From assembly GCA_964612565.1 (NCBI GenBank), contig CAZTDP010000001.1:76336-123581 (forward strand): a stretch of DNA of 47,246 bases. The letters run 5' to 3'. Each line of letters begins with the position of its first letter. The first letter of the stretch is position 1. Source of the stretch: an uncultured Candidatus Saccharibacteria bacterium (GTDB lineage: Bacteria; Patescibacteriota; WWE3; UBA101185; UBA10185). Shown one piece after another: positions 39,001-42,000 of this stretch. Position numbers: made by a program.

Positions 39001-42000
39001 GTTTGATCGTACTAGTTTGCATCCTTTTGGCGATGACAGGTGGTAAGCGCACAACCACAACAGCCCCGTTTAAGGATGATACAGATGTAGGCGGCACTGA
39101 ATCAGTGATACCTGCGGTATCTAATATAAAGCCGGGGGATAACTTAAAGGAGGTTCAAAGCACCAACCAAGAACTTAGAAACGTGAACCAACAGACTACA
39201 GGTACCGGATACACAATGAACTACGTCATTGATAAAACGATAGACAGGCTTGTAACAAACTCCGAAGGAAAAATTGTGGCAATATTTAAATACCCTGAAT
39301 ACGGAGTAGATGATTACACAAGCTCCGCAAAAGTTAAGTACTCGCTAGCCAAGCCTACTGAAACGCTTTATGTAAGTAATGCGGTGGGTGTAAAGATAGA
39401 TGTTTATCCTAACAAAGGAATTGCTTATACGTACAATGAGTATACTCAAAACGTGCAGGAAATATTGGTATTTAAACCTACAACACTAAATGAATTTCTG
39501 ATGTACTTTGGGAAAATGTATACTTACGAGGTCTACAAAGGGAATTAAAACGGTATTGCCGGAGGAGGTTGAACCGGAATAGCCGGCGATGACTAGGGAT
39601 CCATAGTTGTGATACCTGTCAGCTCCTCAACGGCATTCGAAAAATTGCCAAGAATACCTGTTATACTAAAATCGAGTCCAAAAAATCCGGCAACTATAGA
39701 AAAAATAGCGTAAAAAGCTATTACAATTAAAAAACCTAATAGTGCGGAAGTCCATGTTCCCCTTGCAGCCTCAAGACCCCGAGGGTTTCCCAAAGCCATG
39801 GAAGCTTTCCATGCACCATAAACAATAACGCCTACTAACACAACACCTACGAGCACAAATCCCCAATTTAAAACCCTTACAAATACAAGGGTTAAATCGG
39901 CCAAACGAGGATTGTTATCTAAGTCTTGTGCAAAAGCAGGTAAAACAACTAACACAAATGTAAAAAAGGCTGCAAAGGCGCGGAAAAGTTGTGATTTTTT
40001 CATAAACTCACTGTGCCGCTTGATAAAGAAACACCCAACAAATTAACTAAAATTGTTTTAATTCCGAAAGCGATTAAACACAGTATGAAAGCAACAATAG
40101 ACCATGTTAAAGACCTTTGAGCTTCTTGCACTGCCTTAGGATCTCCCATAGAAAGCATGTATTTGTAAAGAGATATTGAGACAGCAATAAAACTTACTGC
40201 GATACCAAGGATTATCGCAATATTTGCAAACACCAAGGCGGCCGATCCCAAATTGGCACCTGCTCCTAAGTTTGCGGGTACTTCAATACTATCAGTAACT
40301 GTGTTAAAAAAATCAGCCATATAAAATGATCCAAAGGGGCCCGGGCCAAACCGGGCCCAGCAAACTTGTCAAACATTTGCGGCGGTACCCCTGTATCAGT
40401 AAGACTCCAAGGATCCTGTATCCGCACCAAGAAGAGAAAGTAACAGCGACCTCACACCGTAAACGATAAGCAAACCTACGCCTCCGATCACAGCGTACGT
40501 AAGAGTCTTTTGTGCAGAATCGACGGCAGCTTTATCACCTTGGGATGTTACGTATTTAATAAAACCCAAAGCTAACATAACAACAACAATCGCCACACCT
40601 ACCACAATCAAGATGTTGGTTATAACTGTAACCAAAGAGTTTACGGTTGTTATCTGAAGTCCACTAATGGCTGTAGTACCAACAGCCTGTTGAGCTAAAA
40701 CTTTAGTTTGTAATAATTCCATCATATTTATTTAATTAGTAAATTACACCTCCTTAAAAGAAAATTAAGCACCAATAATATTTGTCATTATAACCCGCAG
40801 GATAAATACTGACAACATAATGAAAATGACACCAAGTATTGCGGCAGTGAGCTGCTCTTGGGCGTCTTTAAGCTTCATAGGATCGCCTTCACTTGCCATA
40901 AAAAGGTAACCGGCATACATAATCATGAGAATTCCAATAAAGATTCCTGCGTAGTATAAGATTTTTACTAAAGGGGATACTAAGTCTTCAAGATTACTGA
41001 TTTTAGGACCCTGGTACTCTTCCCGCTGACCTAAAGACGCAGCGTCTATAACGCATATATCACTAGAATTACAAATAAGATCTCCTATACAAGAAGCGAC
41101 TATGTTTGTACAACAAGGCTGACCTTCGCCTCCGCAAGTATTTGACTGACAGGTAGGGTCTGTGGTACACACCCCAGAAACACACCTCTCGTATTGAGGG
41201 CAATTAGCAGCGGAGCCACAAGTGCCGTTTGGAGAACACTGGGTTACATTAGACCCTGTGTAAGTAGCACAAGTCCATACACCGTCACCTGTAGCATCAT
41301 TTAATACTGTAAATTCGCAAAATAATCCGATGCCACACCCTCCGGAACCTTCTACCTCACAGGTACCTGAAGCGTTACAGGATGGAACTCCGGACGCAAA
41401 AGCCTCAGGGCATGTGTCGCCCTCAGCCGCGAAAACCGAAAACAAGAATGTTGCAGCAAACAAGACTGTAAAGAATATTAAATATTTTTTAGCTATTTTC
41501 CCCATGTAGTATTAAATATATTATACTTTTAGTTAACTGCCAACAAACTTAATGCTTAGCCCTCAGCTCTGCTATAATAATAAAGTAATGCCCACAACAA
41601 ATCCCAGAAATAAAAATACCTCGGTCGGAGTAATATTTGCAGTGATATTCCATAGCGTGTTTATTGTTGCATCCTCAACATTTTTAACCCTTAAAACCCA
41701 AGCAAGCGACCCGTGCAAAAACATCAGCGACGTCGACGACCAAGCCAAGTGCTACGAAGATCAAATCGAAAAAAAACAAGATGAATATCAATCCACCAGC
41801 AGCAAACTAGAAGATATCCGCAAAACAAAAGATGATATTACAAAACAAATAAATGATTTACTCGGCCAACTATCGGTAACGCAAGCTCAAATTGATAATC
41901 TTCAAAAACAGATAAACGATGTTAAATCCCAACTAGAAGAAATAAATGCAAAACTAAATGACAGTAAAGACGCGCTAAACCAGAAAATCTCGGTGAGAAA

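Follow-up and report, generated by a model that had tools for sequence, protein, structure and literature searches.

A conserved four-gene array of T4SS_pilin-family paralogues in the chromosome of a WWE3 bacterium

Described pilin arrays and the WWE3 locus

Tandem arrays of small pilin genes are already known from the Patescibacteria. Using the families PF18895 (T4SS_pilin; T4SS, type IV secretion system) and PF04956 (TrbC/VirB2), Quinonero-Coronel et al. (2025; PMC12102498) found 441 'VirB2 arrays', each of 2-11 genes, across 383 assemblies of Patescibacteria. The genes of such an array are either in tandem or separated by one non-pilin gene, and identity within an array is 25% on average and 54% at most. 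In the T4SS cluster of Southlakia epibionticum, the pilin series is essential by transposon sequencing (Wang et al. 2023; PMC10633639). The locus described here is an array of four adjacent genes in an ultrasmall WWE3 bacterium. The genes lie on the minus strand of a 47,246-nt stretch of contig CAZTDP010000001.1, all of which was analysed and is referred to as the window, and are numbered 1 to 4 in order of transcription.

The window array is a VirB2 array as defined in PMC12102498, consisting of four adjacent pilin genes of low identity (module mean 24%, maximum 44%). It shares with the other Patescibacteria arrays the PF18895 family, the tandem arrangement (2-11 genes), an identity near 25%, a chromosomal location, the absence of a nearby relaxase and the presence of VirB6-like neighbours. 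It differs from them in its occurrence in WWE3, without a virB4 beside it within the 47-kb window, in its fixed order of position-orthologous genes and in the fusion of one member to an orphan Cys-rich outer domain. WWE3 is not named in the accessible portions of the text and supplements of PMC12102498. An earlier note on this DNA had treated the array as unusual, which does not hold, as similar arrays had already been published (PMC12102498, PMC10633639). The WWE3 array belongs to an already described kind of locus. What is new is the fixed order, the orthology of each position, the conservation and expression layout of gene 2, the orphan Cys-rich domain of gene 1 and the synteny with the VirB6-like and SpoIID-type genes.

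Two further groups of proteins are comparable. The TrbC/VirB2/TraA pilins (PF04956) of F, RP4 and Ti are small proteins with two hydrophobic helices and a short positive loop, as are the window proteins, and window genes 1 and 4 also have a putative cleavable leader. In contrast to these pilins, the window proteins match the family far below its threshold, have no significant structural match and, in the case of genes 2 and 3, have no long signal peptide of the classical type. Moreover, four predicted specialised paralogues take the place of one pilin with a VirB5 tip protein, and the host is monoderm. The second group is the Mbov_0395/MMCAP2_0565 pilin-like protein of mycoplasma integrative conjugative elements (ICEs; NF045849). 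Both this protein and the arrays occur in monoderm or wall-less lineages with a VirB4 of the MPF-FATA class. The mycoplasma protein differs in being encoded by a single mobile-element gene, judged by the name of the model.

Taken as a whole, the locus is best explained, with a probability of roughly 0.6, as an ancient PF18895 operon for a T4SS-type fibre or conduit, in which gene 2 would encode the bulk subunit and the other genes specialised ones.

Shared module and position-specific orthology

The four minus-strand open reading frames (ORFs) that the earlier note had placed here are present at exactly its coordinates (Table 1). All four loop strings that it cited occur in the translations, and genes 4 and 3 share the 4 nt ATGA, as it claimed. 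By hydropathy, each protein is closed by a hydrophobic helix, a short polar loop and a second hydrophobic helix, with the nuance that the gene 4 protein continues for approximately 30 residues beyond them. The four proteins have the module motif S-x-G-D/N-P...A-Q/R...T in common, and pairwise phmmer scores between them are 15-50 bits. A search of the window with a hidden Markov model of the four modules yields no fifth copy.

The similarity of the module is not an effect of composition. In Smith-Waterman comparisons of the six protein pairs with 1000 shuffles that keep the hydrophobic-polar-hydrophobic layout, z is 6.1-18.5 and the observed score is matched by 0/1000 shuffles in each pair. The loops alone have z = 3.2-14.5. 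The loop similarity, the lack of significance of which the earlier note had named as grounds for refutation, therefore goes beyond composition.

A scan of species-representative genomes yields 54 loci. From these, 31 non-redundant four-gene arrays with 124 proteins were compared. PF18895 is matched by 117 of the 124 orthologues at E <= 0.01 (best 3.5e-10), and every other Pfam family by at most 7. The homologues of gene 2 belong by name to candidate division WWE3 and further Patescibacteria; these names and those of the related loci place the organism in WWE3. A precomputed PF18895 match is attached to many of the homologues. Among NCBIfam families, NF045849 is matched at the same threshold by 73 of the 124 members (best 2.7e-9), over nearly the full 80 positions of the model, and no other family by more than 5. 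Genes 1 and 2 score 19.0 and 17.2 bits, below the curated cut-off of 40 bits. The array proteins are thus likely homologous to the NF045849 family and, judged by these scores, would not be equivalog members of it.

The AlphaFold2 model of gene 2 is a helical hairpin (helices 28-60 and 65-98) with a predicted local distance difference test (pLDDT) score of 79.7 overall and above 90 over the hairpin. A hairpin of this kind is generic and has no significant structural match, and gene 4 has weak, sub-threshold Pfam matches to MgtC, Phage_holin_1 and DUF1206. Both observations would fit unrelated proteins with two transmembrane helices, such as holins, transporter fragments or stress proteins, in which the likeness to pilins comes from hydrophobic composition. 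This explanation is very improbable. The layout-preserving shuffles never attain the observed similarity, PF18895 is by far the commonest family, and the context is chromosomal and syntenic, with a VirB6-like protein here and a VirB4-like protein at a related locus, rather than that of a prophage. The identity as holins was considered separately and rejected, as there are no PHROG matches, no holin among the fold matches in BFVD and a chromosomal setting of envelope genes. The search of the viral models in BFVD with the gene 2 model, by Foldseek, returned nothing significant. The sole match to a holin family is that of Phage_holin_1 (13.9 bits, E 0.082), which covers the gene 4 signal peptide and helix 1.

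Every WWE3-type locus contains the same four-gene array in the same order, and the neighbouring genes are likewise the same in other WWE3 genomes. The Microgenomatia loci contain 7-9 genes. For all 124 modules, the nearest relative occupies the corresponding position of an array in another genome. Mean identity is 0.50, 0.58, 0.35 and 0.45 within positions 1 to 4, respectively, and 0.19-0.28 between positions. Position 2 is the most conserved and position 3 the least. It follows that the array is ancient and that every position forms its own orthologous group. The architecture is also constant at each position, with a signal peptide and N-domain at position 1, a short leader at position 2, an acidic N-terminus and no signal peptide at position 3, and a signal peptide and a conserved amphipathic C-terminal helix at position 4.

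All four ORFs belong to the VirB2-like T4SS_pilin family of the Patescibacteria (PF18895) as paralogues that diverged long ago, and they make up a fixed four-gene operon in the chromosome of a WWE3 bacterium. Elsewhere, the window has the content of an ordinary chromosome from a small genome, with genes for rpoD, dnaG, tRNAs, tmRNA/SmpB and the ribosomal protein L25.

Low identity within arrays, here 24% and on average 25% in PMC12102498, would also be expected of a variant repertoire, in which the copies are interchangeable major pilins for surface variation or adaptation to host strains. This was suggested in PMC12102498 by analogy with VirB2 of Bartonella and Anaplasma, and the hypervariable outer domain of gene 1 fits it. 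The position-specific orthology counts against recent amplification or interchangeable variants. As all 124 modules group by position in 31 genomes, neither duplication nor gene conversion has occurred recently. The positions moreover differ consistently in architecture (signal peptide, N-domain, C-terminal helix) and in expression signals, and gene 2 is strongly conserved. A variant repertoire is accordingly an unlikely account of the array.

Predicted specialisation of the four genes

Gene 2 consists of little more than the module. Its leader is short (12-20 residues) and ends in a conserved V-Y/F-A motif, and all 31 orthologues are free of Cys. Identity to the closest WWE3 orthologues is 61-71%, compared with 71-73% for ribosomal protein L25; all other genes of the locus are lower. 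In 29 arrays, the regions upstream of each gene were compared for a Shine-Dalgarno-like match, defined as at least 7 nt matching AGGAGGTG. Such a match is found upstream of gene 2 in 23 arrays, and upstream of genes 1, 3 and 4 in 0, 1 and 0, respectively. A conserved GGRGGTGWR element (for example GAGGGAGGTGTAGAA) precedes gene 2 in 24 of the 29 (the window and loci L003-L041).

Gene 2 also stands out by the hairpin downstream of it. At a threshold of -12 kcal/mol or lower, one is located after gene 2 in 20/29 arrays, and after genes 1, 3 and 4 in 1/29, 0/29 and 0/27. In several lineages it takes the textbook form of a stem and a T-run. The whole-region fold z-score of the intergenic RNA between genes 2 and 3 is not significant, so the case for the hairpin relies on its conserved position. 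The L25-like conservation, the Shine-Dalgarno-like element and the downstream hairpin together mark gene 2 as the likely bulk subunit.

In the operons of type IV pili and of chaperone-usher pili such as Pap, strong translation signals and a downstream hairpin mark the gene of the abundant subunit, the minor genes come after it and the adhesin domain is carried on a rare subunit. The layout of the window array is similar to this by analogy only, as the protein families and assembly machines are unrelated.

Gene 1 differs from the other three in its large N-domain. The putative signal peptide read from its sequence is MGKIAKKYLIFFTVLFAATFLFSVFA/AEGD, ending VFA/A. Across the orthologues, the N-regions at position 1 are 2-543 aa in length with a median of 22 Cys. 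The N-domains are similar by blastp in 28 of 300 pairs, none of which involves the window copy, and the position-1 modules are similar in 465 of 465. The window N-domain, searched alone among 5.8 billion proteins, has no relative except itself. The N-domain is predicted to be secreted, disulfide-rich and fast-evolving, which would fit an exposed recognition or adhesion subunit.

A promoter-like site lies immediately upstream of gene 1 (Table 1). In related loci, TTGACT-17-nATAAT is found equally close to the gene 1 ATG, and in many loci the gene begins approximately 10 nt past the -10-like box. With a promoter so close to the ATG, the leader would be very short or missing. Promoter-like sites in the region occur at chance level, with 7 found and 6.0 expected. 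For this reason, no weight is given to an 11/12 promoter-like site within gene 1.

The putative Sec signal peptide of gene 4, as read from its sequence, ends AFA/Q. In the alignment of its orthologues, the motif YGAWKAS-A-GDPRGL is conserved, and a G-F--I---I-EL helix is seen at the C-terminus. Across the arrays, genes 3 and 4 either overlap or are directly adjacent.

Genomic neighbourhood and the proposed fibre

The operon sits in a conserved envelope neighbourhood with a VirB6-like protein and a SpoIID-type peptidoglycan hydrolase (Table 1). The VirB6-like protein has no direct Pfam match, and its search against PDB sequences is empty. It is homologous (blastp 7e-16) to a protein at a related locus (L045:2612-4402) that is itself above the cut-off of Pfam TrbL (PF04610; 27.1 vs 25.9 bits), and two of its relatives in UniRef are named 'Type IV secretion system protein'. 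Its AlphaFold2 model (pLDDT 84.7) has TrwI/VirB6 of R388 as the only PDB match at a Foldseek probability of 0.93-1.00, with TM-scores of 0.42-0.46 and E-values of 0.16-0.5. The gene is downstream of the array in 23/24 WWE3-type loci and in 13-14/14 other loci.

The SpoIID-type protein scores 70.8 bits with PF08486 and 102.7 bits with TIGR02669. Its gene is divergent from the array, at a distance of 65-83 bp, in 22/23 WWE3-type and 10-13/15 other loci. The genes for the PH-domain protein and the 596-aa protein are conserved beside the array in both WWE3 and Microgenomatia. The HELGH of the 1289-aa protein is metallopeptidase-like, with weak matches to Peptidase_M78/M48, and the protein otherwise matches no family. 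The 1251-, 1289- and 197-aa proteins are candidate envelope proteins on the other flank and may belong to the apparatus.

In loci L042-L060 (Woesebacteria, Amesbacteria and Microgenomates), the syntenic neighbourhood consists of 596-aa-like, bPH and SpoIID genes, the array of 7-9 pilin-like genes, a gene for a Cys-rich giant protein and a VirB6-like gene. The Cys-rich protein that follows each of these arrays is approximately 830-930 aa with 30-37 Cys. The 795-978-aa proteins beside Microgenomatia arrays match no Pfam or NCBIfam family and are not VirB4. Several L042-L060 contigs bear the names Gammaproteobacteria or Acetivibrio in their records, probably through errors of binning or labelling.

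Table 1. Coordinates of the array, its signals, its neighbours and other features of the window.
Feature	Position	Strand	Description
Camelysin/TasA-like, SipW-like and M73-like genes	1783-3334	+	three genes
dCTP deaminase-like (DCD) gene	9169-9894	-	
Low-GC island	~18000-22620		GC 0.315-0.33, ~0.40 elsewhere
Rolling-circle Rep-like gene	20151-21104		REP_ORF2-G2P, 63.6 bits; in island
Large serine recombinase	21094-22572		in island
tRNA-Ala	22543-22618		end of island
DCD gene, short	28420-28824	+	134 aa; matches just the C-terminal part of the domain
tmRNA	28847-29234	-	tag peptide ADNDAFVGVPAMAAVAA; adjoins smpB
smpB	29301-30113	-	mechanical ORF, 270 aa
1251-aa giant protein	29818-33573	+	secreted, Cys-rich; WWE3-conserved; no family matches
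VirB6/TrbL-like protein	33684-35078	-	polytopic membrane protein; probable start 35015, 443 aa; 4.5 kb from array
1289-aa giant protein	35079-38948	+	transmembrane helices near residues 820-940; C-terminal HELGH; WWE3-conserved
197-aa protein	38955-39548	+	single transmembrane helix; no family matches; WWE3-conserved
Gene 4	39593-40003	-	136 aa; putative signal peptide, pilin module, conserved amphipathic C-terminal extension
Gene 3	40000-40320	-	106 aa; pilin module, acidic N-terminus, no signal peptide
8-bp all-GC hairpin	40337-40358	-	GGGCCCGG-TTTGGC-CCGGGCCC; between genes 2 and 3; candidate terminator or attenuator
Gene 2	40396-40725	-	109 aa; minimal pilin module, candidate major subunit
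Shine-Dalgarno-like element	40747-40755	-	AAGGAGGTG; 21 nt upstream of gene 2 ATG
Gene 1	40765-41505	-	246 aa; putative Sec-type signal peptide, ~145-aa domain with 18 Cys, C-terminal pilin module
Promoter-like site	41515-41543	-	TTGGCA-17-TATATT; ends ~9 nt before gene 1 ATG
SpoIID/LytB-domain protein	41552-43435	+	coiled coil; divergent from gene 1; candidate cell-wall-opening enzyme
PH-domain membrane protein	43451-44059	+	bacterial PH domain; bPH_2, 21.2 bits
596-aa protein	44294-46084	+	single transmembrane helix; no Pfam/NCBIfam family

In the proposed mechanism, each array protein would enter the membrane as a hairpin of two helices, of which the positive loop would face the cytoplasm and the two ends would lie outside. 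The hairpins would be extracted and stacked into a fibre or conduit by the VirB6-like platform together with a VirB4 ATPase, the gene of which would lie in another part of the genome. This fibre or conduit would cross the wall through a gap made by the SpoIID-like enzyme. Gene 2 would supply the bulk subunit. Gene 1 would be a rare subunit that displays the fast-evolving, disulfide-rich outer domain, probably for the recognition of host cells, and genes 3 and 4 would be low-abundance initiator, adaptor or terminator subunits. A heteromeric fibre with major and minor or tip subunits had been proposed in the earlier note. The proposed division of labour has indirect backing from three independent comparative lines, which are the position orthology (124/124), the asymmetry of the gene 2 expression signals and the variable Cys-rich domain of gene 1.

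Several points weigh against the reading of the array as an operon for a T4SS-type fibre or conduit. With PF18895, genes 1 to 4 score 27.4, 22.9, 25.9 and 16.9 bits and the gathering score is 26.6 bits, so that gene 1 alone passes and genes 2, 3 and 4 are all below the threshold. TrbC/VirB2 (PF04956) is matched by gene 1 alone, at 16.7 bits (E 0.008; cut-off 27.9), and among the orthologues by just 4 of the 124 at E <= 0.01 (best 6e-4). The VirB2/TrbC pilin layout described in the earlier note thus stands as membership in PF18895, and a genuine TrbC/VirB2 likeness is marginal. Foldseek comparison of the gene 2 model with the PDB gives no match at E <= 0.001 (best E 2.2). The conjugation pilus of A. 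pernix (8dfu) ranks fourth (E 3.4, probability 0.47, TM-scores 0.50/0.62). With so simple a fold as a helical hairpin, a structural search has too little information to discriminate. A search of PDB sequences with the profile of the gene 2 family returns chance matches only, with no pilin among them.

The expression signals and the machinery add to these points. The Shine-Dalgarno-like element is mostly 13-22 nt from the gene 2 ATG, with no alternative start codon between. This spacing exceeds that of a classical Shine-Dalgarno sequence, and the element may therefore not act as one and may instead serve as a standby site for ribosomes or as some other conserved signal. The combination of element and hairpin is missing in most 8-gene Microgenomatia arrays and is not general in 7-9-gene arrays, and the expression levels of the four genes are predictions from the sequence only. 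No VirB4, VirD4 or P-loop protein is present in the window (approximately 39 kb on one side of the array and 6 kb on the other) by a Walker-A scan of all ORFs, and no paper connecting WWE3 with VirB4 was found in the literature. In favour of the reading, the syntenic locus L052 of Microgenomates encodes a VirB4-like ATPase (P-loop_TraG 116.8 bits, AAA_10) 6.5 kb downstream of its array. Against it, finally, a 2025 review (PMC12857230) stresses that no T4SS pilus has so far been observed in a Patescibacterium.

The same lack of an observed pilus is consistent with a T4SS component that is not a fibre. The array proteins would then form a short stalk that spans the membrane or wall, or line a channel with the VirB6-like protein, comparable to the pilus-independent transfer of substrates by VirB2. 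The Patescibacteria are monoderm, and their VirB4 is nested in the pilus-less MPF-FATA class (PMC12102498). The match of 73 of the 124 modules to a small conjugation protein from the ICEs of wall-less mycoplasmas points the same way. On the other side, the large, variable, disulfide-rich domain of gene 1 and a bulk subunit that is predicted to be highly expressed are better suited to an exposed polymer, and the conserved adjacent wall hydrolase suggests a structure that crosses the wall. Neither point is decisive, and a stalk or channel lining is rather unlikely, though a stronger contender than the variant repertoire.

A more specific version of the fibre reading is held only tentatively, with more doubt than confidence. 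It states that this would be a T4SS-type fibre with the construction of a classical adhesive pilus, the first of its kind, with gene 2 as the bulk subunit, genes 3 and 4 in low-copy assembly roles and gene 1 in host recognition. The fibre would be mounted on a monoderm VirB6-like platform, breach the wall by means of the SpoIID-type enzyme and serve as an attachment or uptake organelle of an epibiont. Its module would be of monoderm MPF-FATA descent, as suggested by the mycoplasma ICE match, and not borrowed from diderms.

Other features of the window are distant from the array. Near one end of the window, a camelysin/TasA-like gene (Peptidase_M73, 55.8 bits) adjoins genes for an S26 signal peptidase of the SipW kind and for another protein with a weak likeness to M73. 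Fibre operons of the TasA/SipW type are laid out in this way, and the three genes may therefore encode a second surface-fibre system in the same small genome. The low-GC island with Rep-like and recombinase genes looks like a small integrated element; no flanking att repeats were found around it. The SmpB domain is confined to residues 124-261 of the ORF, so the true smpB start is probably internal. The window also contains two DCD genes, one of them short.

By itself, the locus does not alter the picture of the T4SS of the Patescibacteria, which is essential in the one species tested. The orthology of positions speaks against the idea, put forward in PMC12102498, of interchangeable copies. 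The match to a protein of mycoplasma ICEs raises the possibility that monoderm T4SS are the native setting of the pilin-like module. The comparison of 31 arrays yields a specific, testable model, with a shaft gene, a gene for a host-binding domain, an associated wall enzyme and a membrane platform.

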